Source of the DNA: Escherichia coli
Lineage (GTDB): Bacteria; Pseudomonadota; Gammaproteobacteria; Enterobacterales; Enterobacteriaceae
Direction: 5' to 3' (one strand)
DNA length: 64,000 nt
Assembly (NCBI RefSeq): GCF_009931435.1
Contig: NZ_CP043414.1
Of the stretch, positions 39,454-61,400 are shown piece by piece. How positions within the stretch are numbered: position 1 is the stretch's first letter; the number at the start of each line of letters is the position of its first letter. A model generated the notes under the pieces. The model did not search any database. It had not been told where the DNA came from and saw nothing but the letters and a program-made list of their open reading frames with translations. The translations under genes and the position numbers were made by a program.

Positions 39454-40398
39454 TTAGCGTTTGCAAATTGAGACTAATTGCTCTTCCATCCACTGATGGC
39501 CTTTGTCGCGCCCGGCAGCTTCATGCCAGGAGAGATAACAGGTTCTGCTATTTTGTTTTAATGGCAGCGGTAATACCTGTAACTCTAAAGATTCAGCGAA
39601 CTCTTCAGCCAGCCAACGCGGCGCAATAGCGACCAGATGCGTTTGCGACACCACGCTCAGTACACTCATCATTGCCATGCCCTGATACGCGATACTGGCT
39701 TGTTTATCTACCGTGTCATACCACGGTTGACTAAATGACGCGAAACGATCGAGCGAAACTGCCGCATGTTGTTCGTTATAAACATCATGTTTCAGTAACG
39801 GGCCTTTAATTGTTGGATGATTTTTGCTGGCTACCAGCACCATTTCATCTTTAAATAATGGCACACTGGTAAATTCAGGACGATGGAAGTCTTCATAACT
39901 AATCACAAACTCCGTTTCCTGATAACGCAGTTGATGTTCAGTGTTCTGATTTAATGAAGACTTGAACATAACATGTATATTTGGCGCAGTTTGCTCAATG
40001 TGATTATAAATCTGCGAGGTCAGAATGCTGTCTAACGGACTGCAAACACAAAGATGAAATACACGTTCACTGCTCGCGGGTTCAAAACCTGAACCTGGCA
40101 ATTCATTTTGTACTAATTGCAATGCCTGACGAACTGAACCAAAAAGTTGAAATGCGCGAGCAGTCGGTTGAATGCCACGGCCATAACGAACAAAAAGCTC
40201 GTCATTAAACATCACCTTCAGGCGTGCAACCGCGTTACTGACCGCAGGTTGCGACATCCCCAGAACATGAGCGGCACGGGTGATGTTTTGCTCCTGCATC
40301 ACGGCATCGAAAACGGTTAATAAGTTGAGATCGACCATGCGTAGTTGTGGCTTGCTTAACTCCGCCGTCTCTGGTTGATCTGTTTGTACCTCTGGCAT
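39454..40398 (-). CDS. leuO: LysR-family transcriptional regulator LeuO, 314 aa
   Basis: Track ORF 39454..40482 trimmed to [60 protein letters not shown]... Confidence 0.93.
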
Positions 40399-41056
40399 AC
40401 TTAACTCCACTGTCACACTTAACTCCCTTTCCCTTATTGGAATGCAGAGAAATAATCCTCGAGAATATGATTTATCATGCATATAAAATAAGAAAAAGGA
40501 AAATGAGAAAAATTAGGAAAACATAAAGATACGGGTTCTTATAAAAACAGAACCCATTGCCGAGTAAAGAGTCATTTACCGCAGCATAATAATCCATAAT
40601 GTTTTTGTTGCGAAAACAATCTAATCATAACTACCGCGAATACTCAATCATCCACAAAATGGATTAAATGTGCTTTTTTAATAATTAATTTATATGTTTA
40701 ATGCATTAATTCTTAACATTAATAGAACAATAATATTCACCAAATGAATATCAAAAAATTAGCAAAACATATAATTCAATACAAATCATCAAGATAGGTT
40801 TTGTAACGCGTGCATTTTATCCCCCTTTTCCTCGTTGATTAGATGCAAAAATTTATTCTGAAATATGTCAACCGATGAAAAGCGTCGGTGGTTAAGCAGA
40901 AATTAATATCGCTTGTTTTAACCACCGCAGCACAATTAGCTAATTTGACGAATGCAGAACTCACTCTGGCGGAACGTTTTTGTTGCGTCAGGGTTGACAT
41001 CCGTTTTTGTATCCAGTAACTCTAAAAGCATATCGTATTCATCTGGAGCTGATTTA
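40399..41056. promoter_or_regulatory. AT-rich leuO-leuL divergent control region (H-NS/LeuO-controlled, promoter relay region)
   Basis: ~660 bp strongly AT-rich spacer between divergent leuO and leuLABCD, as in K-12; regulatory role from literature, sites not resolved. Confidence 0.5.
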
Positions 41057-41143
41057 ATGACTCACATCGTTCGCTTTATCGGTCTACTACTACTAAACGC
41101 ATCTTCTTTGCGCGGTAGACGAGTGAGCGGCATTCAGCATTAA
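41057..41143 (+). CDS. leuL: leu operon leader peptide, 28 aa, four consecutive CUA Leu codons
   Basis: Track ORF 40952..41143 trimmed to ATG at 41057: [28 protein letters not shown]; ggt cta cta cta cta aac read in sequence. Confidence 0.92.
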
Positions 41144-41165
41144 GCCAGCACGCAGTCAAACAAAA

Positions 41166-41193
41166 AACCCGCGCCATTGCGCGGGTTTTTTTA
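41166..41193 (+). terminator. leu attenuator terminator
   Basis: CCCGCGC-catt-GCGCGGG followed by TTTTTTTT between leuL and leuA. Confidence 0.85.
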
Positions 41194-41235
41194 TGCCCGA
41201 AGCGAGGCGCTCAAAAAGAGACAAGGACCCAAACC

Positions 41236-43898
<2,663 letters not shown>

Positions 43899-43900
43899 TC

Positions 43901-45917
<2,017 letters not shown>

Positions 45918-45949
45918 TTTGTACACCGTCCGGCACTCAATCGCCAAAA

Positions 45950-46177
45950 AGAAAAAAGCCAGCAGATAATCACTGCTGGCGTGGCGATTAACACCAATAC
46001 TCAGTCACACATGATGTCCGCAAATCAGTAGTCAGAATGACTCCCCTCCCACTGCATCAGCTCTTCAAGCATGGTTAATCGTTGTGGGACGCTTAACCAA
46101 CGCAACCAGCACAACGTCGCTGTCGCGGTAAAATAGTGCTGATAAAACTGACGTATGGGGCACCTCCTTGCTTCATC
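45950..46177 (-). ncRNA. sgrS: Small RNA SgrS (glucose-phosphate stress)
   Basis: Minus strand begins GATGAAGCAAGGAGGTGCCCCATACGTCAG... and contains the conserved ptsG-pairing seed GTGTGACTGAGTATTGGTG followed by hairpin GCCAGCAGTGATTATCTGCTGGC + U-run; matches remembered SgrS. Ends are approximate. Confidence 0.85.
46025..46156 (-). pseudogene. sgrT: sgrT-homologous reading frame inside sgrS with start codon ATA instead of ATG
   Basis: Frame encodes (I)RQFYQHYFTATATLCWLRWLSVPQRLTMLEELMQWEGSHSDY, homologous to K-12 SgrT (MRQFYQHYFTATAKLCWLRW...); the codon aligned with the K-12 ATG is ATA (plus-strand tat at 46154-46156). No alternative in-frame start nearby. Confidence 0.55.
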
Positions 46178-46244
46178 GTTAGGAATTATTGACTTAATAT
46201 AGGGAAAATAAAATTGCTGACTTTTGCGCAGGAGTTCCCCTTTT

Positions 46245-47900
46245 ATGCCATCTGCTCGTCTGCAACAACAGTTCATCCGCCTGTGGCAATGCTGCGAGGG
46301 TAAATCGCAGGACACAACGCTCAACGAACTAGCGGAGTTATTGAGCTGCTCCCGTCGTCATATGCGCACCCTGCTCAATACCATGCAGGATCGCGGCTGG
46401 CTGACGTGGGAAGCGGAGGTCGGGCGCGGTAAACGCTCACGTTTAACATTCCTCTATACCGGGCTGGCGCTTCAGCAACAGCGAGCAGAGGACCTGCTGG
46501 AGCAGGATCGTATCGATCAACTGGTGCAACTGGTTGGCGACAAAGCGGCTGTGCGGCAAATGTTGGTTTCTCATTTGGGACGCAGCTTCCGCCAGGGGCG
46601 GCACATCCTGCGCGTGCTCTACTATCGTCCGTTGCGCAATCTGCTGCCCGGCAGTGCATTGCGCCGTTCCGAAACCCATATCGCCCGGCAAATCTTCAGT
46701 TCGCTAACGCGCATAAATGAGGAAAATGGGGAACTGGAAGCAGACATCGCCCACCACTGGCAGCAAATATCACCGCTTCACTGGCGCTTCTTTTTGCGTC
46801 CAGGAGTCCATTTTCATCATGGTCGTGAACTGGAAATGGACGATGTGATCGCCTCTTTAAAACGAATCAATACGCTGCCGCTTTATTCGCATATTGCGGA
46901 CATTGTGTCGCCGACGCCCTGGACGCTGGATATCCATCTCACGCAACCGGACCGCTGGTTACCGTTACTGCTGGGGCAAGTTCCGGCGATGATCCTGCCA
47001 CGAGAATGGGAAACCCTCAGTAACTTTGCCAGCCATCCCATCGGCACCGGTCCGTATGCGGTGATCCGCAACAGCACCAATCAACTGAAAATTCAGGCAT
47101 TCGATGACTTCTTCGGTTATCGCGCATTAATCGACGAAGTAAATGTCTGGGTTCTGCCAGAAATTGCCGACGAGCCAGCCGGCGGTCTGATGCTAAAAGG
47201 GCCGCAGGGCGAGGAAAAAGAGATTGAAAGTCGGCTGGAGGAAGGTTGCTACTATTTACTGTTCGACAGCCGCACCCATCGCGGGGCGAACCAGGCGGTA
47301 AGAGACTGGGTAAGCTATGTTCTCTCCCCCACCAACCTGGTCTATTTTGCCGAAGAACAGTACCAGCAACTCTGGTTTCCAGCCTACGGGCTGTTGCCGC
47401 GCTGGCATCATGCCCACCCGACGCATTGCGAAAAACCCGCCGGGCTGGAAAACCTCACCCTGACTTTTTATCAGGATCATATTGAGCATCGAGTGATTGC
47501 CGGGATCATGAAGCAGATTCTGGCAAGTTATCAGGTCACACTGAAAATTAAAGAGATCAGCTACGATCAGTGGCACGAAGGAGAGATCGAAAGTGACATC
47601 TGGCTTAACAGCGCCAACTTTACGCTGCCGCTGGATTTTTCGCTGTTCGCGCACTTGTGCGAGGTGCCGCTGCTCCAACACTGTATTCCGATCGACTGGC
47701 AAGCCGACGCCGCCCGCTGGCGCAATGGCGAAATGAATCTGGCGAACTGGTGCCAGCAACTGGTCGCCAGTAAAGCAATGGTGCCACTTATCCACCACTG
47801 GCTGATCATTCAGGGGCAACGCAGTATGCGCGGTCTGCGTATGAACACCCTCGGCTGGTTCGATTTTAAATCCGCGTGGTTTGCGCCGCCGGATCCATGA
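46245..47900 (+). CDS. sgrR: Transcriptional activator SgrR, 551 aa
   Basis: Track ORF 46224..47900 trimmed to ATG 46245: [44 protein letters not shown]... Confidence 0.93.
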
Positions 47901-47939
47901 TTGCTGGTTGATAACAAAATCACTACACTAACGCCGTTC

Positions 47940-48045
47940 TCAACGGGGTGCCACGCTGCCGCGTGCGCTGAGAAAATACCCGTCGAACCTGATCCGGATA
48001 ACGCCGGCGAAGGGATTTGAGGCTCCTTCTCAAGTCCTTTGCCAC
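47940..48045 (+). ncRNA. TPP (thi-box) riboswitch in thiBPQ leader (SroA region)
   Basis: GGGGTGCCACGCTGCCGCGTGCGCTGAGAAAATACCCGTCGAACCTGATCCGGATAACGCCGGCGAAGGGA read in sequence; contains the conserved CUGAGA and ACCUGAUC...GGGA thi-box elements. Boundaries approximate. Confidence 0.85.
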
Positions 48046-48063
48046 TCTTCTTTGAGGTGCAAA

Positions 48064-49047
48064 GTGTTAAAAAAATATCTTCCCCTGCTGTTGCTCTGTA
48101 CAGCACCCGCTTTCGCTAAACCCGTTCTGACTGTTTATACCTACGATTCCTTCGCCGCCGACTGGGGGCCAGGTCCGGTGGTGAAAAAAGCCTTTGAAGC
48201 CGACTGTAATTGCGAACTGAAACTGGTGGCGCTGGAAGATGGCGTTTCGCTTCTCAACCGTCTGCGGATGGAAGGCAAAAACAGTAAAGCCGATGTGGTG
48301 CTGGGGCTGGATAACAATCTGTTAGATGCCGCCAGCAAAACCGGGCTGTTTGCTAAAAGCGGTGTGGCAGCGGATGCCGTTAACGTTCCCGGTGGCTGGA
48401 ATAATGACACTTTTGTCCCATTTGATTACGGCTACTTCGCCTTCGTCTATGACAAGAACAAACTGAAAAATCCGCCGCAAAGCCTGAAAGAATTGGTTGA
48501 AAGCGATCAGAACTGGCGAGTGATTTATCAGGATCCGCGTACCAGTACGCCGGGCCTGGGCCTGTTGTTGTGGATGCAAAAAGTCTATGGCGATGACGCC
48601 CCGCAAGCCTGGCAGAAGCTGGCGAAGAAAACCGTCACGGTCACCAAAGGCTGGAGCGAAGCCTACGGCCTGTTTTTAAAAGGCGAAAGCGATCTGGTAC
48701 TGAGTTACACCACCTCTCCGGCTTATCACATTCTCGAAGAGAAGAAAGATAACTACGCCGCCGCGAACTTCAGCGAAGGTCACTATTTGCAAGTGGAAGT
48801 CGCCGCCCGCACCGCTGCCAGCAAACAGCCGGAGCTGGCGCAAAAATTCCTCCAGTTTATGGTTTCTCCGGCTTTTCAGAATGCGATCCCAACCGGCAAC
48901 TGGATGTATCCGGTGGCAAACGTCACGCTGCCTGCCGGTTTTGAAAAATTGACCAAACCGGCAACCACGCTGGAGTTCACGCCAGCCGAGGTGGCGGCAC
49001 AACGTCAGGCATGGATTAGCGAATGGCAACGCGCCGTCAGCCGTTAA
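48064..49047 (+). CDS. thiB: Thiamine ABC transporter periplasmic binding protein, 327 aa, GTG start
   Basis: Track ORF starts at TTG 48052; set to GTG 48064 (VLKKYLPLLLLCTAPAFAKPVLTVYTYDSFAADWG...) to match the known 327-aa protein. Confidence 0.92.
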   Translation: MLKKYLPLLLLCTAPAFAKPVLTVYTYDSFAADWGPGPVVKKAFEADCNCELKLVALEDGVSLLNRLRMEGKNSKADVVLGLDNNLLDAASKTGLFAKSGVAADAVNVPGGWNNDTFVPFDYGYFAFVYDKNKLKNPPQSLKELVESDQNWRVIYQDPRTSTPGLGLLLWMQKVYGDDAPQAWQKLAKKTVTVTKGWSEAYGLFLKGESDLVLSYTTSPAYHILEEKKDNYAAANFSEGHYLQVEVAARTAASKQPELAQKFLQFMVSPAFQNAIPTGNWMYPVANVTLPAGFEKLTKPATTLEFTPAEVAAQRQAWISEWQRAVSR

Positions 49048-50633
49048 TTCCCGGCTGGTTAATTCCAGGCGTAAGCGCCGCTACGCTTGTGGTGGCGGTT
49101 GCACTGGCGGCATTTCTCGCCCTGTGGTGGAACGCGCCGCAGGGTGACTGGATGGCAATCTGGCAGGACAGCTACCTGTGGCATGTGGTGCGCTTCTCCT
49201 TCTGGCAGGCGTTTCTCTCGGCGCTGCTCTCTGTCGTACCCGCGATATTCCTCGCCCGCGCGCTCTATCGCAGGCGCTTTCCGGGTCGGCTGACGCTGTT
49301 GCGTCTGTGCGCAATGACCTTGATCCTCCCGGTGCTGGTTGCTGTTTTCGGCATTCTTAGCGTCTATGGTCGCCAGGGCTGGCTGGCATCACTCTGCCAA
49401 TCGCTCGGTCTGGAGTGGACCTTTTCGCCCTACGGCCTGCAAGGTATTTTGCTGGCGCACGTATTTTTTAATCTGCCGATGGCGAGCCGCTTATTACTCC
49501 AGGCACTGGAAAACATTCCCGGCGAACAACGTCAACTTGCCGCCCAGCTTGGGATGCGCGGCTGGCATTTTTTCCGCTTCGTCGAATGGCCGTGGTTACG
49601 GCGTCAAATCCCGCCGGTTGCCGCGCTTATCTTTATGCTCTGTTTCGCCAGCTTCGCCACCGTGCTATCGCTGGGCGGCGGTCCGCAGGCGACCACTATC
49701 GAGCTGGCAATCTATCAGGCGCTGAGTTACGACTACGATCCCGCCCGCGCGGCGATGCTGGCGCTGATCCAGATGATATGTTGCCTTGGGCTGGTGCTGT
49801 TGAGTCAGCGACTAAGTAAAGCCATTGCGCCCGGCACCACGCTGCTGCAAGGCTGGCGCGACCCGGACGACCGTCTGCATAGCCGCATTTGCGACACGGT
49901 GTTAATTGTGCTGGCGCTGCTGCTGTTGCTGCCACCGTTACTAGCGGTGATTGTCGATGGGGTAAATCGCCAGTTGCCAGAGGTGCTGGCACAACCGGTG
50001 CTGTGGCAGGCGCTGTGGACCTCGTTGCGTATTGCGCTGGCGGCAGGCGTATTATGCGTAGTGCTGACCATGATGCTGCTATGGAGCAGTCGCGAATTGC
50101 GGGCACGGCAAAAAATGCTGGCGGGTCAGGCGCTGGAGATGAGCGGAATGCTGATCCTCGCCATGCCGGGGATTGTGCTGGCAACGGGCTTCTTTTTACT
50201 GCTCAACAACACTATCGGCCTGCCGCAATCTGCTGACGGCATTGTGATTTTCACCAATGCGTTAATGGCGATCCCTTACGCACTGAAAGTGCTGGAAAAC
50301 CCGATGCGCGATATCACCGCGCGTTACAGTATGTTGTGTCAGTCGCTGGGGATTGAAGGCTGGTCGCGCTTAAAAGTGGTGGAACTGCGCGCCCTGAAAC
50401 GTCCGCTGGCGCAGGCGCTGGCCTTTGCGTGTGTGCTGTCGATTGGTGATTTTGGCGTGGTGGCGTTGTTCGGTAACGATGATTTCCGTACCCTGCCGTT
50501 TTATCTCTACCAGCAAATTGGCTCCTATCGTAGCCAGGACGGTGCGGTGACCGCGTTAATTCTGCTGCTGCTCTGTTTTCTGCTGTTTACCGTGATTGAA
50601 AAACTACCGGGGCGAAATGTTAAAACTGACTGA
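49023..50633 (+). CDS. thiP: Thiamine ABC transporter permease, 536 aa
   Basis: Track ORF; [40 protein letters not shown]... Confidence 0.95.
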
Positions 50634-51315
50634 TATCACCTGGCTTTATCACCATTTGCCGATGCGTTTTAGCTTAACGGTGGAACCCGGCGAGCAGGTG
50701 GCGATCCTCGGGCCAAGCGGCGCGGGTAAAAGTACCCTGCTAAATTTGATCGCCGGTTTTCTGACGCCAGCCAGCGGTTCGCTGACTATCGATGGTATTG
50801 ATCACACCACGACGCCGCCGTCACGCCGTCCGGTATCGATGCTGTTTCAGGAGAACAACCTGTTCAGTCACCTGACGGTCGCGCAGAACATCGGGCTGGG
50901 GCTTAATCCTGGATTGAAGCTGAACGCGGCGCAGCAGGAGAAAATGCATGCTATCGCCCGCCAGATGGGGATTGATAATTTAATGGCGCGATTACCGGGC
51001 GAGCTTTCTGGCGGTCAGCGACAGCGCGTGGCGTTAGCGCGTTGTCTGGTGCGCGAACAGCCGATTTTATTGCTCGATGAACCGTTCTCTGCGCTCGATC
51101 CGGCGTTACGTCAGGAGATGCTGACGCTGGTGAGCACGAGCTGCCAGCAGCAAAAAATGACGCTATTGATGGTGTCGCACAGTGTGGAAGATGCGGCGCG
51201 GATCGCCACACGCTCGGTGGTGGTCGCTGACGGGCGCATCGCCTGGCAGGGTAAGACTGAAGAATTGTTGAGCGGTAAGGCGAGTGCTTCGGCAATATTG
51301 GGGATTACGGGTTAG
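50617..51315 (+). CDS. thiQ: Thiamine ABC transporter ATP-binding protein, 232 aa
   Basis: Track ORF 50596..51315 trimmed to [18 protein letters not shown]...; Walker [10 protein letters not shown]. Confidence 0.93.
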
Positions 51316-51322
51316 TATGCAC

Positions 51323-51410
<88 letters not shown>

Positions 51411-51427
51411 CCCGCACAGACTATCCC

Positions 51428-52192
51428 CTAAACCCCAACCACTTTCCGCAAAATATCGATATATACCGGCATCAACGGGTGGCGAATTAACACTACCAGC
51501 GCCACTACACCGACGGCAGAAATTAACGGTGCCAGCCACAACAAACGACCGCGCGACAAATAATGACTTAAACGGTCAGTCGCTTTACCACTGCGCCATA
51601 ACCGCCAGCACAGCCAGCCACCAACCCACAAAAACACCGCTGTTGCCAGCAGCAACCATTTAAACTCGCCACTCTGCATTCCGGCAGGAATATCGATCGC
51701 CGCGCCCGCCAGAATCCCCGGCAGGAAGTAAAACGGCGGCCATAACAGGCAGCCGATAATATTTGGCGTAATAAATTTCGCCACCGGGAGATCCAACATT
51801 CCCGCCACCATTGGCACCAGCGGACGCGTCGGGCCGACAAAACGACCGACCAGAATGGTAAACATGCTGTGTTGATGCAACGCATGTTCAGTTTTATCGA
51901 GTAATGCTTTGTTCTTCTTCAGAAACGACCAGCGATGCAACGGCTTTTTAAAACGCCAGCCCAGCCAGAAGGAGATCCAGTCGCCCAGCAGGCAACCGAC
52001 GATCCCTGCCAGCCAGGCGTGCCAGAAACTTAACTCGCCGCTGCCAATCAGCGCTCCCAGCCCCGCCATCAGCACCGTACCGGGTAGAATCAAACCGACC
52101 AGCGCCAGCGACTCCAGAAAGGCCACCAACACCACCGCCATCAATGAATACACGGTGGATTGGGTAATAAAGTGTTCCAGCAATGCTTGCAT
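51428..52192 (-). CDS. yabI: DedA-family inner membrane protein, 254 aa
   Basis: Track ORF; MQALLEHFITQSTVYSLMAVVLVAFLESLALVGLILPGTVLMAGLGALIG... Confidence 0.94.
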   Translation of the reverse strand: MQALLEHFITQSTVYSLMAVVLVAFLESLALVGLILPGTVLMAGLGALIGSGELSFWHAWLAGIVGCLLGDWISFWLGWRFKKPLHRWSFLKKNKALLDKTEHALHQHSMFTILVGRFVGPTRPLVPMVAGMLDLPVAKFITPNIIGCLLWPPFYFLPGILAGAAIDIPAGMQSGEFKWLLLATAVFLWVGGWLCWRLWRSGKATDRLSHYLSRGRLLWLAPLISAVGVVALVVLIRHPLMPVYIDILRKVVGV

Positions 52193-52277
52193 AATGTGCC
52201 TGTCAAATGGACGAAGCAGGGATTCTGCAAACCCTATGCTACTCCGTCAAGCCGTCAATTATCTGATTCGTTACCAA

Positions 52278-53156
52278 TTATGACAACTTGACGGCTACAT
52301 CATTCACTTTTTCTTCACAACCGGCACGGAACTCGCTCGGACTGGCCCCGGTGCATTTTTTAAATACTCGCGAGAAATAGAGTTGATCGTCAAAACCAAC
52401 ATTGCGACCGACGGTAGCGATAGGCATCCGTGTGGTGCTCAAAAGCAGCTTCGCCTGACTAATGCGTTGGTCCTCGCGCCAGCTTAAGACGCTAATTCCT
52501 AACTGCTGGCGGAACAGATGCGACAGACGCGACGGCGACAGGCAGACATGCTGCGCGACGCTGGCAATATCAAAATTGCTGTCTGCCAGGTGATCGCTGA
52601 TGTACTGACAAGCCTCGCGTACCCGATTATCCATCGGTGGATGGAGCGACTCGTTAATTGCTTCCATGCGCCGAAGTAACAATTGCTCAAGCAGATTTAT
52701 CGCCAGCAGCTCCGAATAGCGCCCTTCCCCTTGCCCGGCGTTAATGATTTGCCCAAACAGGTCGCTGAAATGCGGCTGGTGCGCTTCATCCGGGCGAAAG
52801 AAACCGGTATTGGCAAATATTGACGGCCAGTTAAGCCATTCATGCCAGTAGGCGCGCGGACGAAAGTAAACCCACTGGTGATACCATTCGCGAGCCTCCG
52901 GATGACGACCGTAGTGATGAATCTCTCCTGGCGGGAACAGCAAAATATCACCCGGTCGGCAGACAAATTCTCGTCCCTGATTTTTCACCACCCCCTGGCC
53001 GCGTATGGTGAGATTGAGAATATAACCCTTCATTCCCAGTGGTCGGTCGATAAAAAAATCGAGATATCCGTTGGCCTCAATCGGCGTTAAACCCGCCACC
53101 AGATGGGCGTTAAACGAGTATCCCGGCAGCAGGGGATCATTTTGCGCTTCAGCCAT
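52278..53156 (-). CDS. araC: Arabinose operon regulator AraC, 292 aa
   Basis: Track ORF 52278..53207 trimmed to [49 protein letters not shown]... Confidence 0.95.
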
Positions 53157-53184
53157 ACTTTTCATACTCCCGCCATTCAGAGAA

Positions 53185-53205
53185 GAAACCAATTGTCCAT
53201 ATTGC
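53185..53205. promoter_or_regulatory. araO2 AraC half-site (DNA looping operator) in araC leader
   Basis: AACCAATTGTCCATATTGCAT contains the TCCATA AraC half-site motif, ~280 bp upstream of PBAD as expected. From memory, not verified. Confidence 0.5.
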
Positions 53206-53363
53206 ATTAGACATTGCCGTCACTGCGTCTTTTACTGGCTCTTCTCGCTAATCCAACCGGTAACCCCGCTTATTAAAAGCATTCTGTAACAAAGCGGGAC
53301 CAAAGCCATGACAAAAACGCGTAACAAAAGTGTCTATAATCACGGCAGAAAAGTCCACATTGA

Positions 53364-55196
<1,833 letters not shown>

Positions 55197-55206
55197 GGAC
55201 ACGACA

Positions 55207-56709
55207 ATGACAATTTTTGATAATTATGAAGTGTGGTTTGTAATTGGCAGCCAGCATCTGTATGGTCCGGAAACCCTGCGTCAGGTCACCCAACATGCCG
55301 AGCACGTCGTTAATGCGCTGAATACGGAAGCGAAACTGCCCTGCAAACTGGTGCTGAAACCGCTGGGCACCACGCCGGATGAAATCACCGCTATTTGCCG
55401 TGACGCGAATTACGACGATCGTTGCGCTGGTCTGGTGGTGTGGCTGCACACCTTTTCCCCGGCCAAAATGTGGATCAACGGCCTGACCATGCTCAACAAA
55501 CCGTTGCTGCAATTCCACACCCAGTTCAACGCGGCGCTGCCGTGGGATAGCATCGATATGGACTTTATGAACCTGAACCAGACTGCACATGGCGGTCGCG
55601 AGTTCGGCTTCATTGGCGCGCGTATGCGTCAGCAACATGCTGTCGTTACCGGTCACTGGCAGGATAAACAAGCACATGAGCGTATCGGCTCCTGGATGCG
55701 TCAGGCGGTCTCTAAACAGGATACCCGTCATCTGAAAGTTTGCCGCTTTGGCGATAACATGCGTGAAGTGGCGGTCACCGATGGCGATAAAGTTGCCGCA
55801 CAAATCAAATTCGGTTTCTCCGTCAATACCTGGGCAGTTGGCGATCTGGTGCAGGTGGTGAACTCCATCAGCGATGGCGATGTTAACGCGCTGGTCGATG
55901 AGTACGAAAGCTGCTACACCATGACGCCTGCGACACAAATCCACGGCGAAAAACGGCAGAACGTGCTGGAAGCTGCGCGTATTGAGCTGGGGATGAAGCG
56001 TTTCCTGGAACAAGGTGGCTTCCATGCGTTCACCACCACCTTTGAAGATTTGCACGGTCTGAAGCAGCTTCCAGGCCTGGCCGTGCAGCGTCTGATGCAG
56101 CAGGGCTACGGCTTTGCGGGCGAAGGCGACTGGAAAACTGCCGCCCTGCTTCGCATCATGAAAGTGATGTCAACCGGTCTGCAGGGCGGCACCTCCTTTA
56201 TGGAGGACTACACTTACCACTTCGAAAAAGGTAATGACCTGGTGCTCGGCTCCCATATGCTGGAAGTCTGTCCGTCGATCGCCGTAGAAGAGAAACCGAT
56301 CCTCGACGTTCAACACCTCGGGATTGGCGGTAAAGACGATCCTGCCCGCCTGATCTTCAATACCCAAACTGGTCCGGCGATTGTCGCCAGCTTGATTGAT
56401 CTCGGCGATCGTTACCGTCTGCTGGTTAACTGCATCGACACGGTGAAAACGCCGCACACCCTGCCGAAACTGCCGGTGGCGAATGCGCTGTGGAAAGCGC
56501 AGCCGGATCTACCAACCGCTTCCGAAGCGTGGATCCTTGCTGGTGGCGCGCACCACACCGTCTTCAGCCATGCGTTGAACCTCAACGATATGCGCCAGTT
56601 TGCCGAGATGCACGACATTGAAATCACGGTGATTAATAACGACACCCGCCTGCCAGCGTTTAAAGACGCGCTGCGCTGGAACGAAGTGTATTACGGATTT
56701 CGTCGCTAA
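55207..56709 (+). CDS. araA: L-arabinose isomerase, 500 aa
   Basis: Track ORF; [49 protein letters not shown]... Confidence 0.96.
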
Positions 56710-56712
56710 GTA

Positions 56713-56810
56713 GCCGCATCAGGTATGTAACGCCTGATGCGACGCTGACGCGTCTTATCTGGCCTACACGTTCCGATTTTGTAGGCCGGATAAGCAAAGC
56801 GCATCCGGCA
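56713..56810. repeat. REP-like palindromic units in araA-araD spacer
   Basis: GCCGCATCAGGTATGTAACGCCTGATGCGACGC...TGTAGGCCGGATAAGCAAAGCGCATCCGGCA read in sequence; REP family by consensus. Confidence 0.75.
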
Positions 56811-56813
56811 TTC

Positions 56814-56856
56814 TTTTCCCCCTCGCCCCTTTGGGGAGAGGGCCGGGGTGAGGGGA
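56814..56856. repeat. GC-rich imperfect palindrome (boxC-like) immediately upstream of araD SD
   Basis: TTTTCCCCCTCGCCCCTTTGGGGAGAGGGCCGGGGTGAGGGG; CCCCTCGCCCC pairs with GGGGTGAGGGG. Family assignment (boxC-like) is from memory and uncertain. Confidence 0.45.
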
Positions 56857-56877
56857 AACGACCTCTCAGGAGTCAAC

Positions 56878-57573
56878 ATGTTAGAAGATCTCAAACGTCA
56901 GGTTTTAGAAGCCAACCTGGCGCTGCCAAAACACAACCTGGTCACGCTGACCTGGGGCAACGTCAGCGCCGTTGATCGCGAGCGCGGCGTCTTTGTAATC
57001 AAACCTTCCGGCGTCGATTACAACGTCATGACCGCTGACGATATGGTCGTGGTCAGCATCGAAACCGGTGAAGTGGTTGAAGGTACGAAAAAGCCCTCCT
57101 CCGACACGCCAACTCACCGGCTGCTCTATCAGGCATTCCCGTCCATTGGCGGCATTGTGCATACGCACTCCCGCCACGCCACCATCTGGGCGCAGGCGGG
57201 CCAGTCAATTCCGGCAACCGGCACCACCCACGCCGACTATTTCTACGGCACCATTCCCTGCACTCGCAAAATGACCGACGCAGAAATCAACGGCGAATAT
57301 GAGTGGGAAACCGGTAACGTCATCGTTGAAACTTTCGAAAAACAGGGTATCGACGCAGCGCAAATGCCTGGCGTTCTGGTCCATTCTCACGGCCCGTTTG
57401 CATGGGGTAAAAACGCTGAAGACGCAGTGCATAACGCCATCGTGCTGGAAGAAGTCGCTTATATGGGGATTTTCTGCCGCCAGCTTGCTCCGCAGTTACC
57501 GGATATGCAGCAAACATTGCTGGATAAACACTATCTGCGTAAGCATGGTGCGAAGGCATATTACGGGCAGTGA
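56878..57573 (+). CDS. araD: L-ribulose-5-phosphate 4-epimerase, 231 aa
   Basis: Track ORF 56848..57573 trimmed to [48 protein letters not shown]... Confidence 0.95.
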
Positions 57574-57578
57574 TTTAA

Positions 57579-57612
57579 GAGAAGCATCTGGGTAACAGGT
57601 GCTTCTTTTTTA
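57579..57612 (+). terminator. Intrinsic terminator after araD
   Basis: AGAAGCATCTG-ggtaac-AGGTGCTTCT (one mismatch in stem) followed by TTTTTTATTAT, 6 nt after the araD stop. Confidence 0.65.
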
Positions 57613-57619
57613 TTATCAC

Positions 57620-58063
57620 TCAGGCAGCAAGAAAAATTTCTGCCCCTATTCCCTCAATTAACAGTGCTTCTAATGAAGGGGCAATATACACCGCATCATC
57701 AAGATCTAAATTACCAAAACCGACGAGATATAAACCAAACCCCTCTTTTCCTTCGGCATAAAAAATCACTTTTCCGCCTTCATCATCGCCAATCGCCAGA
57801 GCGTGTGGAATATAATCCTGAATATGGTATGCGGCATTCATCTCACTACAGCCTGCGGCTCCCCAAATTCTGATATAAGACGTTGAATCCATCACTTTTA
57901 ATTCAACGTCTGCCATCAGAGTAATAAAGGTTAAATACTCATCAGGAATTGCAATGTGAAAATAATTTTTTATAAGTTGACCGAGTCCACTATAATCTAA
58001 TACGGGTTCCCATGACGCCAGCGTGAATTTTTCATGCAATTTAACAATAGGAAACTTACTCAT
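57620..58063 (-). CDS. Hypothetical protein, 147 aa, SUKH/SMI1-KNR4-like (putative immunity protein)
   Basis: Track ORF; ATG start overlaps upstream ORF stop (ATGA). Segments IPDEYLTFITL, ALAIGDDEGGKVIFY, GLYLVGFGNLDLDDAVYIAPSLEALL resemble the SMI1/KNR4 (SUKH-1) pattern. Assignment by eye only. Confidence 0.6.
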   Translation of the reverse strand: MSKFPIVKLHEKFTLASWEPVLDYSGLGQLIKNYFHIAIPDEYLTFITLMADVELKVMDSTSYIRIWGAAGCSEMNAAYHIQDYIPHALAIGDDEGGKVIFYAEGKEGFGLYLVGFGNLDLDDAVYIAPSLEALLIEGIGAEIFLAA

Positions 58064-58407
58064 TTCATCATCCTTTTCTTATACTTCTGGGGTAAAATAT
58101 CCGTTATAACGCCTTCACCTATAAATCCGGCTTCCCACAGCAGAAACTCACTGCCACAGCTGATCCACGGCATTACAAGTTCAGGATTTAAAAACGCCAT
58201 CTCAAGATTGTGTACCATTTCGCCAGGGTGAATCGTTTTTCCATAGCCGTCGATGTAAATCCGGCAGCCATAACCATATGAAGATAACTCATTAATCCCT
58301 TTAAAAAAGACAGGACAGCCGTAAAAACGGTTAGATGATAACAAAGGGCCACGATGCGATTTTTGCGTTGAAGAGTATAGTGTAATGGTAATCCGAACCT
58401 TTCTCAT
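58060..58407 (-). CDS. Hypothetical protein, 115 aa, no recognisable family
   Basis: Track ORF; ATG preceded by GGAGGG SD (minus strand TTCGGAGGGAAGATG); translationally coupled to the downstream SUKH-like ORF (4-nt overlap). Confidence 0.6.
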   Translation of the reverse strand: MRKVRITITLYSSTQKSHRGPLLSSNRFYGCPVFFKGINELSSYGYGCRIYIDGYGKTIHPGEMVHNLEMAFLNPELVMPWISCGSEFLLWEAGFIGEGVITDILPQKYKKRMMK

Positions 58408-58419
58408 CTTCCCTCCGAA

Positions 58420-58752
58420 TTAATTACGCTCTTCAATCAAATATGTCGTTTTATTAGTCCAGGCGATTATTTTATAGGGTCTGTTAATAATACCTTTCTG
58501 CGTATAATCAGCCATAATTTCTGATGGATACCAACCATAACCAAAGCAAAATAAAGCACCTACATTAATAAGCTCACTAATTACACTTAGTTTCTCATTT
58601 TCATTACTGGTATTTTTGCTAAATCGATCATTGTCGGCAGAAAAACCCAACCGTTGCATTTTTTCAACGTTATCATATCCGGTCACTACCGTTTCAATGA
58701 AATTATCACTTATGCTAACCACTATAATACAATCGCTCGGCAGTGTGTTCAT
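58420..58752 (-). CDS. Hypothetical protein, 110 aa, no recognisable family
   Basis: Track ORF; ATG start; 12-nt gap to next ORF; AT-rich upstream region 58753-58975 likely holds the promoter. Confidence 0.55.
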   Translation of the reverse strand: MNTLPSDCIIVVSISDNFIETVVTGYDNVEKMQRLGFSADNDRFSKNTSNENEKLSVISELINVGALFCFGYGWYPSEIMADYTQKGIINRPYKIIAWTNKTTYLIEERN

Positions 58753-58975
58753 TTCCCCTTGATCCTTCTAAAGTCATTTTTTCACCACAACAATGAATTC
58801 AATAGATATAATGAATATATGCAGCCATTTATATATAATTAGCATTACACCCTAATGCCTTAATATAACCCAAACAGAAATCGTCCGATAATCAGAAAAT
58901 GTAATCATTGAATAAAGCAGGAACCTTTTTATCGCATGAGAAACCGAAGATGGTTGATGCCGTTTCGTCAAACAT

Positions 58976-58995
58976 TACTGTACAAAATATCAGTG
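58976..58995. promoter_or_regulatory. LexA-box-like sequence upstream of polB (one mismatch to CTGT-N8-ACAG)
   Basis: TACTGTACAAAATATCAGTG: CTGT-N8-TCAG. polB is a known SOS gene; the K-12 box as I recall (CTGTATAAAACCACAG) is a perfect match, this one is not. Confidence 0.45.
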
Positions 58996-59001
58996 TTCAG
59001 T

Positions 59002-59034
59002 AAAAAACCAGGCTATAATCAAGCCTGGTTTTTT
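59002..59034. terminator. A-run/hairpin/T-run element just upstream of polB (hairpin loop contains TATAAT)
   Basis: AAAAAACCAGGCTATAATCAAGCCTGGTTTTTT; perfect 7-bp stem CCAGGCT/AGCCTGG. Could terminate transcription from either side and/or supply the polB -10. Confidence 0.55.
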
Positions 59035-59048
59035 GATGGATTTTCAGC

Positions 59049-61400
59049 GTGGCGCAGGCAGGTTTTATCTTAACCCGACACTGGCGGGACACCCCGCAAG
59101 GGACAGAGGTCTCCTTCTGGCTGGCGACGGACAACGGGCCGTTGCAGGTTACGCTTGCACCGCAAGAGTCCGTGGCGTTTATTCCCGCCGATCAGGTTCC
59201 CCGCGCCCAGCATATTTTGCAGGGTGAACAAGGCTTTCGCCTGACGCCGCTGGCGTTAAAGGATTTTCATCGCCAGCCGGTGTATGGCCTTTACTGTCGC
59301 GCCCATCGCCAGTTAATGAATTACGAAAAGCGCCTGCGTGAAGGTGGCGTTACCGTCTACGAGGCCGATGTGCGCCCGCCAGAACGCTATCTGATGGAGC
59401 GGTTTATCACCTCACCGGTGTGGGTCGAGGGTGATATGCGCAATGGCGCTATCGTTAATGCCCGTCTGAAACCGCATCCCGACTACCGCCCGCCGCTCAA
59501 GTGGGTTTCTATTGATATTGAAACCACCCGCCACGGTGAACTGTACTGCATCGGTCTGGAAGGCTGCGGGCAGCGCATCGTTTATATGCTGGGGCCGGAG
59601 AATGGCGATGCCTCCGCGCTTGATTTCGAACTGGAGTACGTCGCCAGTCGTCCGCATCTGCTGGAAAAACTCAACGCCTGGTTTGCTAACCACGATCCCG
59701 ATGTGATCATCGGCTGGAACGTGGTGCAATTCGATCTGCGAATGCTGCAAAAACATGCCGAGCGTTATCGTATTCCGCTGCGGCTGGGGCGCGATAACAG
59801 TGAGCTGGAGTGGCGCGAGCACGGCTTTAAAAACGGTGTCTTTTTTGCCCAGGCCAAAGGGCGGCTAATTATCGACGGTATCGAGGCACTGAAATCCGCG
59901 TTCTGGAATTTCTCTTCATTCTCGCTGGAAACCGTCGCTCAGGAGTTATTAGGCGAAGGAAAATCTATCGATAACCCGTGGGATCGGATGGACGAAATTG
60001 ACCGCCGTTTCGCCGAAGATAAACCTGCGCTAGCAACTTATAACCTGAAAGATTGCGAACTGGTGACGCAGATCTTCCACAAAACTGAAATCATGCCGTT
60101 TTTACTCGAACGAGCGACGGTTAACGGCCTGCCGGTAGATCGGCACGGGGGATCGGTGGCGGCGTTTGGTCATCTCTATTTTCCGCGAATGCATCGCGCT
60201 GGTTATGTCGCGCCTAATCTCGGCGAAGTGCCGCCGCACGCCAGCCCTGGCGGCTATGTGATGGATTCGCGGCCTGGGCTTTATGATTCGGTACTGGTGC
60301 TGGACTATAAAAGCCTGTACCCGTCGATCATCCGCACCTTTCTGATTGATCCCGTCGGACTGGTAGAAGGTATGGCGCAGCCTGATCCAGAGCACAGTAC
60401 CGAAGGCTTTCTCGATGCCTGGTTCTCGCGGGAGAAACATTGCCTGCCGGAGATTGTGACTAACATCTGGCACGGGCGCGATGAAGCCAAACGCCAGGGC
60501 AATAAACCGCTGTCGCAGGCGCTGAAGATCATTATGAATGCCTTTTACGGCGTGCTCGGTACTACCGCCTGTCGCTTCTTCGATCCGCGCCTGGCATCGT
60601 CGATCACCATGCGTGGTCATCAGATCATGCGGCAAACCAAAGCGTTGATTGAAGCGCAGGGCTACGACGTGATCTACGGCGATACCGACTCAACGTTTGT
60701 CTGGCTGAAAGGCGCACATTCGGAAGAAGAAGCGGCGAAAATCGGTCGTGCACTGGTGCAGCACGTTAACGCCTGGTGGGCAGAAACGTTGCAACAGCAA
60801 CGGCTGACTAGCGCACTGGAATTGGAGTATGAAACCCATTTCTGCCGTTTTCTGATGCCAACCATTCGCGGAGCCGATACCGGCAGTAAAAAACGTTATG
60901 CCGGGCTGATTCAGGAGGGCGATAAGCAGCGGATGGTGTTTAAAGGGCTGGAAACCGTGCGCACCGACTGGACACCGCTGGCCCAGCAGTTTCAGCAGGA
61001 GCTATATCTACGTATCTTCCGCAACGAGCCATATCAGGAGTACGTCCGCGAAACCATCGACAAACTGATGGCTGGCGAACTGGATGCACGGCTGGTTTAC
61101 CGTAAACGCCTTCGCCGTCCACTGAGCGAATACCAGCGTAATGTGCCGCCTCATGTACGCGCCGCACGCCTTGCGGATGAAGAAAACCAAAAGCGCGGTC
61201 GCCCCTTGCAATATCAGAACCGCGGCACCATTAAGTACGTATGGACCACCAACGGCCCGGAGCCGCTGGACTACCAACGTTCACCGCTGGATTACGAACA
61301 CTATCTGACCCGCCAGCTACAACCCGTGGCGGAGGGAATACTCCCTTTTATTGAGGATAATTTTGCTACACTTATGACCGGGCAACTTGGGCTATTTTGA
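59049..61400 (+). CDS. polB: DNA polymerase II (family B), 783 aa, GTG start
   Basis: Track ORF; (M)[40 protein letters not shown]...; exonuclease and polymerase motifs (YGDTDS) present. Confidence 0.96.

Follow-up and report, generated by a model that had tools for sequence, protein, structure and literature searches.

In a stretch of 64,000 nucleotides (nt) of the Escherichia coli contig NZ_CP043414.1 (assembly GCF_009931435.1), referred to here as the window, araD, the last gene of the arabinose operon araBAD, is directly followed by a hairpin. This hairpin and the U-tract behind it are probably a canonical, essentially one-way Rho-independent terminator for araBAD, in a version specific to one particular gene junction. 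The genes araB, araA and araD all lie on the plus strand; they are followed by three close-packed open reading frames (ORFs) on the minus strand, collectively termed the islet, and then by polB, again on the plus strand (Table 1). The start of araD is confirmed as MLEDLK and its stop codon, TGA, occupies positions 57571–57573. The stop of ORF1, the last gene of the islet operon, is found at 57620–57622 (TCA), and the two units converge across a gap of 46 nt.

The core of the hairpin, at 57581–57605, consists of GAAGCATCTG, the loop GGTAA and CAGGTGCTTC. The stem is followed on the plus strand by TTTTTTATTATC: a T-run at 57606–57611 and then ATTATCAC up to position 57619. An outer inverted repeat stretches the palindrome from the araD stop codon to just short of the ORF1 stop, and nearly the whole of the 46-nt gap is palindromic. 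A terminator scan called the hairpin on the plus strand only (14 pairs, 5 of them G-C), starting 4–8 nt past the araD stop codon and with a core stem of −14.8 kcal/mol. A 71-nt context folds at −26.6 kcal/mol on the plus strand (z = −6.2, with 0 of 200 shuffles as good) and at −17.9 kcal/mol on the minus strand (z = −4.3). The core stem is present in single copy in the window even when three mismatches are allowed, and none of the shuffles gave a match: the hairpin is real and beyond chance. A first-pass annotation of the same DNA had placed a hairpin at 57579–57612, where the islet operon converges on araD, and its coordinates are right to within 2–3 nt.

The two strands of this element are markedly unequal. 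On the minus strand both G·U pairs turn into C·A mismatches. The tail behind the stem reads UCUUAAAUCA, includes CTTAAATCA and is not terminator-like. A d'Aubenton-Carafa-type score gives the plus strand +29.8, with a stem of −14.8, a T-score of 4.93 and UUUUUUAUUAUC as U-tract; the minus strand, with a stem of −9.2 and a T-score of 1.92, reaches −46.4. The minus-strand tail, UCUUAAAUCA or UCUUAAAUUA, lacks a U-rich tract and has a T-score of 1.9–2.0. No A-tract that would mirror the U-tract is found 5' of the stem, where the flank reads TTTAAGAG, and the hairpin is devoid of the symmetry of a bidirectional terminator. The plus-strand T-run and plus-strand bias noted by the first-pass annotation are borne out by scan, folding and score alike, the bias being strong, and its remark that the islet operon ends without a convincing intrinsic terminator agrees with the minus-strand tail and scores.

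Conservation follows the same strand. The hairpin is kept in more than 20 assemblies and occurs in three variants: variant 1, that of the window, is GAAGCATCTG-GGTAA-CAGGTGCTTC; variant 2 is GAAGCGTCTG-GATAA-CAGGCGCTTC; and variant 3 is GAAGCGTCTG-GATAA-CAGACGCTTC. All stem substitutions keep the plus-strand pairing, one being a compensatory change of A-U to G-C and another a change of U·G to U-A. Standard pairs occupy 56 of 56 cells on the plus strand versus 49 of 56 on the minus strand, and both the T-run and the upstream TTTAAGAG are invariant. Plus-strand scores of the three variants range from +30 to +37; their minus-strand scores lie between −47 and −22, and the minus-strand stems of variants 1 and 2 (−9.2 and −10.2 kcal/mol) contain an internal C·A mismatch. 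The variant 1 spacer shows 0 differences in 55 nt, compared with 20–25 per 300 nt in the adjacent 3' end of araD, and the window and lineage L001 are identical over a 123-bp block, 57518–57640. The pair-preserving pattern is suggestive of a maintained plus-strand structure. The terminator had initially been described as shared by the two converging units; this is doubtful, as the G·U wobbles and the invariant T-run point to selection on the araD-sense RNA only.

In the proposed mechanism, the hairpin would stop strong, arabinose-induced transcription before it could run antisense through the islet towards polB, and a second hairpin of the K-12 type, placed before polB, would act as a further barrier. 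The promoter of the operon, P_BAD, is very strong. Islet transcripts, probably rare, would meet only a mismatched hairpin with no U-tract and read partway into antisense araD; they would be ended mainly by Rho acting on untranslated RNA and then possibly be trimmed back to the hairpin.

A number of points weigh against this reading. The covariation derives from four distinct sequences and is not significant, the observed score being attained in 84 of 500 shuffles. The stem of variant 3 is perfect on both strands, with −15.3 kcal/mol on the minus strand, where polymerase may pause at the hairpin or terminate in part. A mere 7 nt separate the araD stop codon from the core stem, and a terminating ribosome could reduce the efficiency of the plus-strand terminator. 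The region of minus-strand RNA in which C exceeds G, and on which Rho might load, is short and includes the hairpin, and the RNA 320–480 nt downstream is G-rich. The termination efficiencies are predictions only, and the involvement of Rho, the low expression of the islet and the insulating role of the hairpin are inferred from sequence. The anatomy of the junction, the difference between its strands, its conservation and distribution and the recombination history are shown by the sequences themselves.

The convergent geometry, with one hairpin spanning the 46-nt stop-to-stop gap, would also suit a bidirectional terminator, at which the hairpin pauses RNA polymerase in both directions and head-on and trailing collisions with araBAD transcription release the islet transcript. 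Terminators of this kind are reported not to be intrinsic-like and not to need Rho (bioRxiv 10.1101/2022.10.23.513370), and the variant 3 stem, perfect on both strands, would lend itself to such pausing. Clean minus-strand 3' ends would then be expected around 57580 in the presence of arabinose and read-through in its absence. However, this explanation demands appreciable transcription from both sides, whereas the islet is AT-rich and has no convincing promoter and araBAD is off without arabinose. In addition, the C·A mismatches on the minus strand of variants 1 and 2 have not been removed by selection, and the plus strand already carries a full canonical terminator that needs no collision partner. 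Termination by collision appears rather unlikely.

The islet has a GC content of 32–45%, compared with 52–60% in the flanks, a composition typical of silenced acquired DNA. A sigma-70 scan upstream of ORF3 detected no convincing promoter, the best weak candidate being TTGAAT-15-TGnAAAAAT at 58802–58776. As the DNA is AT-rich and no strong promoter is apparent, expression of the islet is probably low. A separate, good match to the sigma-70 consensus, TTTATA-16-TATAAT (10 of 12 positions), is found within ORF1 on the plus strand at 57969–57996, antisense to the islet and directed towards polB; it may be spurious in such AT-rich DNA, and transcripts starting there would reach the K-12-type hairpin at 59001–59035.

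Islet transcripts may plausibly read through into antisense araD, where Rho or collisions between polymerases would most likely end them. In the minus-strand RNA past the ORF1 stop, the first 120 nt have a C/G ratio of 1.57–1.75, which corresponds to the 87th–90th percentile of the window; the ratio is approximately 1.0 at 80–240 nt and 0.5–0.7 at 320–480 nt. Rho may plausibly terminate these transcripts within a few hundred nucleotides of their entry into antisense araD, without this being strongly predicted. The first-pass annotation had suggested that the islet may rely on Rho: the C-rich, G-poor character of the first ∼120 nt favours this proposal, but the neutral and then G-rich RNA beyond keeps the prediction at a moderate level.

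The alternative raised at the same time was a coupling of the islet to arabinose catabolism. Here the absence of a terminator would itself be functional and generate an antisense RNA to the 3' end of araD, so that the immunity genes would be coupled to arabinose catabolism or the reverse. The weak predicted minus-strand terminator does make read-through into araD physically plausible, and the 123-bp block is unusually conserved for two diverged lineages. Nevertheless, the arrangement is best explained by a paralog recombination that deleted a proper terminator, as discussed below; a DUF6348 gene is interposed between the SUKH gene and araD in Escherichia fergusonii and in lineage L014; ORF2 and ORF3 are frameshifted in several lineages; and the islet has no identifiable strong promoter. 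No minus-strand feature is conserved in antisense araD beyond the coding of araD itself, and the ORF that opens at 57559, the next minus-strand ATG past the ORF1 stop, lacks a Shine–Dalgarno sequence. Moreover, a weak antisense transcript would be unlikely to matter against mRNA made at the level of P_BAD. No evidence for the coupling emerged, and a regulatory purpose is very unlikely.

A further idea is that the asymmetry of the hairpin is functional: with arabinose, collisions with the dense araBAD traffic halted by the hairpin would end the immunity-operon transcript, and without arabinose antisense araD would be read until Rho intervenes. This proposal is improbable. If true, both the 3'-end formation and the stability of an orphan immunity transcript would depend on how active a sugar operon is, and the junction would be a natural instance of conditional termination, dependent on collisions, at a terminator that otherwise works one way.

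In every collection searched, the hairpin is seen only between araD and a converging SUKH gene. It is present in 2 of 5,426 complete E. coli genomes, both of which bear the islet, and Escherichia sp. MOD1-EC7003 is the sole match among 100,044 species representatives. Many Escherichia albertii assemblies carry it at the junction of araD and SUKH, and one metagenome contig harbours it in the same context; a scan of JGI metagenomes anchored on the end of araD returned no match. The hairpin was first assumed to be the ordinary araD terminator, as the earlier annotation had implied, and this was ruled out by alignment with islet-free E. coli. In these strains the araD–polB spacer measures 74 bp and comprises a LexA box (CTGTATAAAACCACAG) and a hairpin, AAACCAGGCTATACTCAAGCCTGGTTTTTT, just before the polB start. 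The araD stop codon is precisely where similarity to this spacer is lost, to be regained at ∼58976, and the K-12-type hairpin stands 1.4 kb downstream in the window. The latter is flanked by A6 and T6 and scores +14.2 on the plus strand and +14.4 on the minus strand, which is terminator-like on both. As it is retained alongside the extra hairpin after araD, two plus-strand terminators would stand in series between araD and polB.

The palindrome sits right at the left edge of the islet, the point at which alignment with islet-free E. coli is lost, and the spacer is a rearrangement hotspot with at least four architectures. The palindrome might instead be a DNA-level scar or recombination site at the islet boundary, for instance the target of a mobile cassette or one of its ends, and play no part in forming RNA 3' ends. 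Against this, the palindrome has no repeat anywhere else, neither within the window nor across the genomes of E. coli and other organisms. No matching element is found at the right boundary of the islet, and a search of 56500–59300 against Rfam gave no match at the hairpin. The combination of stem and U-tract, the wobble pairs legal on the plus strand only and the pair-preserving changes fit an RNA terminator, and a purely DNA-level role is highly improbable. A repeated or mobile element (a repetitive extragenic palindromic, REP, sequence or a cassette end) was likewise considered and rejected, given the single copy in the window and the constant context elsewhere. Nor is the hairpin carried along with the SUKH gene: similarity to the E. 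fergusonii locus ends at the stop codon, behind which a different hairpin is found.

The architectures of the araD–polB spacer shed light on the islet side of the junction. Architecture A, that of the window, runs polB, ORF3, ORF2, SUKH, hairpin, araD. Architecture B reads polB, ORF3, ORF2, SUKH1, a duplicated polB 5' fragment, DUF218, SUKH2, hairpin, araD. Architecture C, found in E. fergusonii and L014, consists of SUKH, a different GCGCC hairpin, DUF6348 and araD, with no hairpin after araD, and in this layout araD may be co-transcribed with DUF6348. Architecture D, common in E. albertii, reads polB, DUF218, SUKH2, hairpin, araD. The fragment in architecture B (E. albertii L010–L013, L034 and L036) is a 101-amino-acid (aa) duplicate of the polB 5' end that is located between SUKH1 and DUF218 and keeps the upstream hairpin and LexA-box region (∼2900–3210 in L012 and L013). 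It points to a past tandem duplication or insertion with the polB 5' end as recombination substrate.

The 3' flank of SUKH1, as seen in architecture C and in truncated form in B, carries the hairpin ACGCGTCAC...AAAAGCGCC-TATTCA-GGCGCTTTTGATTG, which has U-tracts on both strands. In E. fergusonii (L003, 4445–4515) and L014, where DUF6348 separates SUKH from araD, the converging 3' ends share a hairpin GCGCC-CTATTCA-GGCGC. It has the look of a textbook bidirectional terminator and offers a useful natural comparison with the one-way hairpin of the window. In alignments, ORF1 of the window is SUKH1-like for ∼110 nt and thereafter resembles SUKH2 and the E. fergusonii gene; the SUKH gene of L001 is SUKH1-like until its last ∼25 nt, where it changes over to the SUKH2 flank. 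Recombination between the paralogs SUKH1 and SUKH2 is the best reading of how architecture A arose, with crossover points that apparently differ between lineages. Such an event would have set the ORF3–ORF2–SUKH operon against the araD terminator and discarded its own U-tract hairpin. The lost minus-strand terminator would then be an accident of recombination, for which no function need be invoked.

Table 1. Features of the araD–polB region, in window coordinates (a dot marks features not assigned to one strand).
Feature	Position	Strand	Basis
araD, L-ribulose-5-phosphate 4-epimerase, 231 aa	56878..57573	+	Pfam Aldolase_II, E = 1.3e-52; annotated araD in matching E. coli records
Candidate Rho loading region, first ∼120 nt of untranslated minus-strand RNA	57500..57619	-	C 26–28%, G 15–18%
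Outer 5-bp inverted repeat, GTGAT (57570–57574) / ATCAC (57615–57619)	57570..57619	.	Minimum free energy structure and sequence
Extended hairpin, 14-bp stem including 2 G·U pairs	57577..57609	+	Terminator scan, folding, conservation
Core 10-bp stem, 57581–57590 / 57596–57605, with loop GGTAA at 57591–57595	57581..57605	+	
U-tract of plus-strand terminator, TTTTTT ATTATC	57606..57617	+	Same in all variants
ORF1, 147 aa, SUKH-1-type, last gene of islet operon	57620..58063	-	
ORF2, 115 aa, EF-Tu-domain-3-like	58060..58407	-	
ORF3, 110 aa, first gene of islet operon	58420..58752	-	
AT-rich region upstream of islet operon, ∼32% GC	58753..58975	-	86.7% identity to L001, least conserved segment
LexA-box-like CTGTACAAAATATCAG upstream of polB	58978..58993	+	Alignment with islet-free E. 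coli
K-12-type hairpin, core CCAGGCTATAATCAAGCCTGG at 59008–59028, directly before polB start	59001..59035	.	Alignment, scores
polB, DNA polymerase II, 783 aa	59049..61400	+	

The backbone around the locus is that of E. coli: positions 40000–56000 of the window are 98.5% identical to the best complete genomes, and its exact SUKH and PolB proteins are recorded as E. coli proteins. The three-ORF islet is found in just 2 of 5,426 complete RefSeq E. coli genomes, at 92.5% identity. Comparison with the closest islet-free genome yields a mosaic profile of flank divergence (95–99%) with no clear recombination tract. On the polB side, the right half of the LexA-box-like sequence reads TCAG, versus ACAG in the K-12-type and E. 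fergusonii spacers, and SOS control of polB may consequently differ in islet-bearing lineages. The loop of the K-12-type hairpin holds a perfect TATAAT. Upstream, the araA–araD spacer shows a weak match to the REP-like Rfam family naRNA4 (56691–56764, plus strand), which at 30.7 bits is under the gathering score; the length of this spacer varies among strains from 114 to 253 nt, with a 54-bp gap relative to strain RMDEC465. A literature search on araD, polB and the terminator retrieved nothing relevant.

Of the islet genes, ORF1 is the best characterized. Taken alone it matches Pfam PF09346 with E = 5e-4, under the cutoff (21.1 versus 25.4 bits); 14 of 15 members of its family match the same entry (best 3.9e-10), and the family profile matches PDB 3D5P with E = 9e-10. 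These profile matches establish ORF1 as a SUKH-1 (SMI1/KNR4) immunity-type protein. Its ratio of non-synonymous to synonymous substitutions (dN/dS), 0.11–0.22, denotes purifying selection. ORF1 is an orphan, with no adjoining toxin gene in the window; homologs that are 52–54% identical directly follow PAAR-Rhs-Tox-SHH toxins in Photorhabdus and Pluralibacter. SUKH proteins are listed as immunity partners of Tox-SHH nucleases (Zhang et al. 2012, PMC3482391).

ORF2 is a member of a family of ∼100-aa standalone EF-Tu-domain-3-like beta-barrels with 188 representatives, of which no description was found in a literature search. Most relatives are 109 aa long and the window copy 115 aa: a 1-nt deletion close to its 3' terminus (58060–58080) alters the tail from ...ILPAEV to ...ILPQKYKKRMMK, each followed by a stop. 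The 115-aa form is also reported from E. fergusonii. As a result of the deletion, ORF2 overlaps the start of ORF1 by 4 nt (ATGA), and the two genes could be translationally coupled. The AlphaFold2 model (mean predicted local distance difference test score, pLDDT, 93.3) superposes on domain 3 of EF-Tu with a TM-score of ∼0.71 and a root-mean-square deviation of ∼2 Å, and the sequence profile agrees. Near-invariant residues are C31, D47-C48-R49, G62, F72, W91 and G99 (relatives include P0026–P0176, L021 and L038). Family members are found as fusions to DUF6966, DUF5071 or DUF7420, as tandem paralogs, and as a read-through fusion behind an Rhs C-terminal region that bears a deaminase-like CAEQHA motif. 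Lineages L001, L008 and L009 have a frameshifted ORF2. The family may represent immunity or decoy proteins against EF-Tu-binding toxins.

ORF3 has homologs in Escherichia only and is predicted to be an alpha/beta protein. It has no Pfam or NCBIfam match, and its medium-confidence model has no significant match in the PDB. Neighbours of ORF2 homologs in L021 and L022 were considered as ORF3 relatives and rejected as unrelated. The gene is frameshifted in L014 and L019, with a dN/dS of 0.3–1.0. As a whole the islet looks like a small orphan polyimmunity-type locus, in which only the membership of ORF1 is established. The layout matches, with tandem, co-directional small genes, no toxin and a content that varies between strains; the ties of ORF2 to polyimmunity (Rhs read-through fusion, domain fusions and tandem paralogs) are circumstantial.

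Comparison with known systems places the hairpin in familiar territory. Like canonical unidirectional Rho-independent terminators, it combines a 10–14-bp, G+C-containing stem, a 5-nt loop and a 6-U tract after a stop codon, and nothing substantive distinguishes it from them; it is located 7 nt from the araD stop and 8–14 nt from the stop of the converging gene. The K-12-type spacer hairpin, which is the usual end of the araBAD transcript, does the same job in the same form (stem, short loop and six T). The window hairpin is, however, unrelated to it in sequence and directly follows the araD stop codon, whereas the K-12-type element is symmetric, with A6 and T6 and a score of ∼+14 on both strands. 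Symmetry also sets apart the polB-proximal hairpin and the E. fergusonii GCGCC hairpin, which have U-tracts on both strands compared with one in the window hairpin. Bidirectional terminators of convergent genes (Ju et al. 2019, via Wang et al., and Wang et al., bioRxiv 10.1101/2022.10.23.513370), similarly place one hairpin in a short gap. In contrast, the window hairpin is asymmetric, with a full U-tract on one side and wobbles legal on one strand, and the islet unit is probably poorly expressed, so that the requirement for collision may fail. Polyimmunity loci and orphan SUKH genes (Zhang et al. 2012, PMC3482391) resemble the islet in their tight array of co-directional small genes, SUKH-1 member, absence of a toxin and variability among strains and species. 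The islet differs in having just three genes, of which only ORF1 falls in a described immunity family, ORF2 being of an apparently undescribed family and ORF3 confined to Escherichia.

As a mechanism, the junction would amount to a textbook intrinsic terminator facing a poorly terminated, probably weakly expressed accessory operon, and matters little. What modest value it has comes from three points. The end of the araBAD transcription unit differs across Escherichia, and some lineages would have two serial terminators before polB. The islet would be a clean natural example of paralog recombination stripping an operon of its terminator, and the araD–polB spacer appears as a hotspot for orphan immunity genes in Escherichia. 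The ORF2 family, which falls outside the finding proper, is the most interesting by-product: an apparently undescribed group of standalone EF-Tu-domain-3 look-alikes associated with polymorphic toxins.

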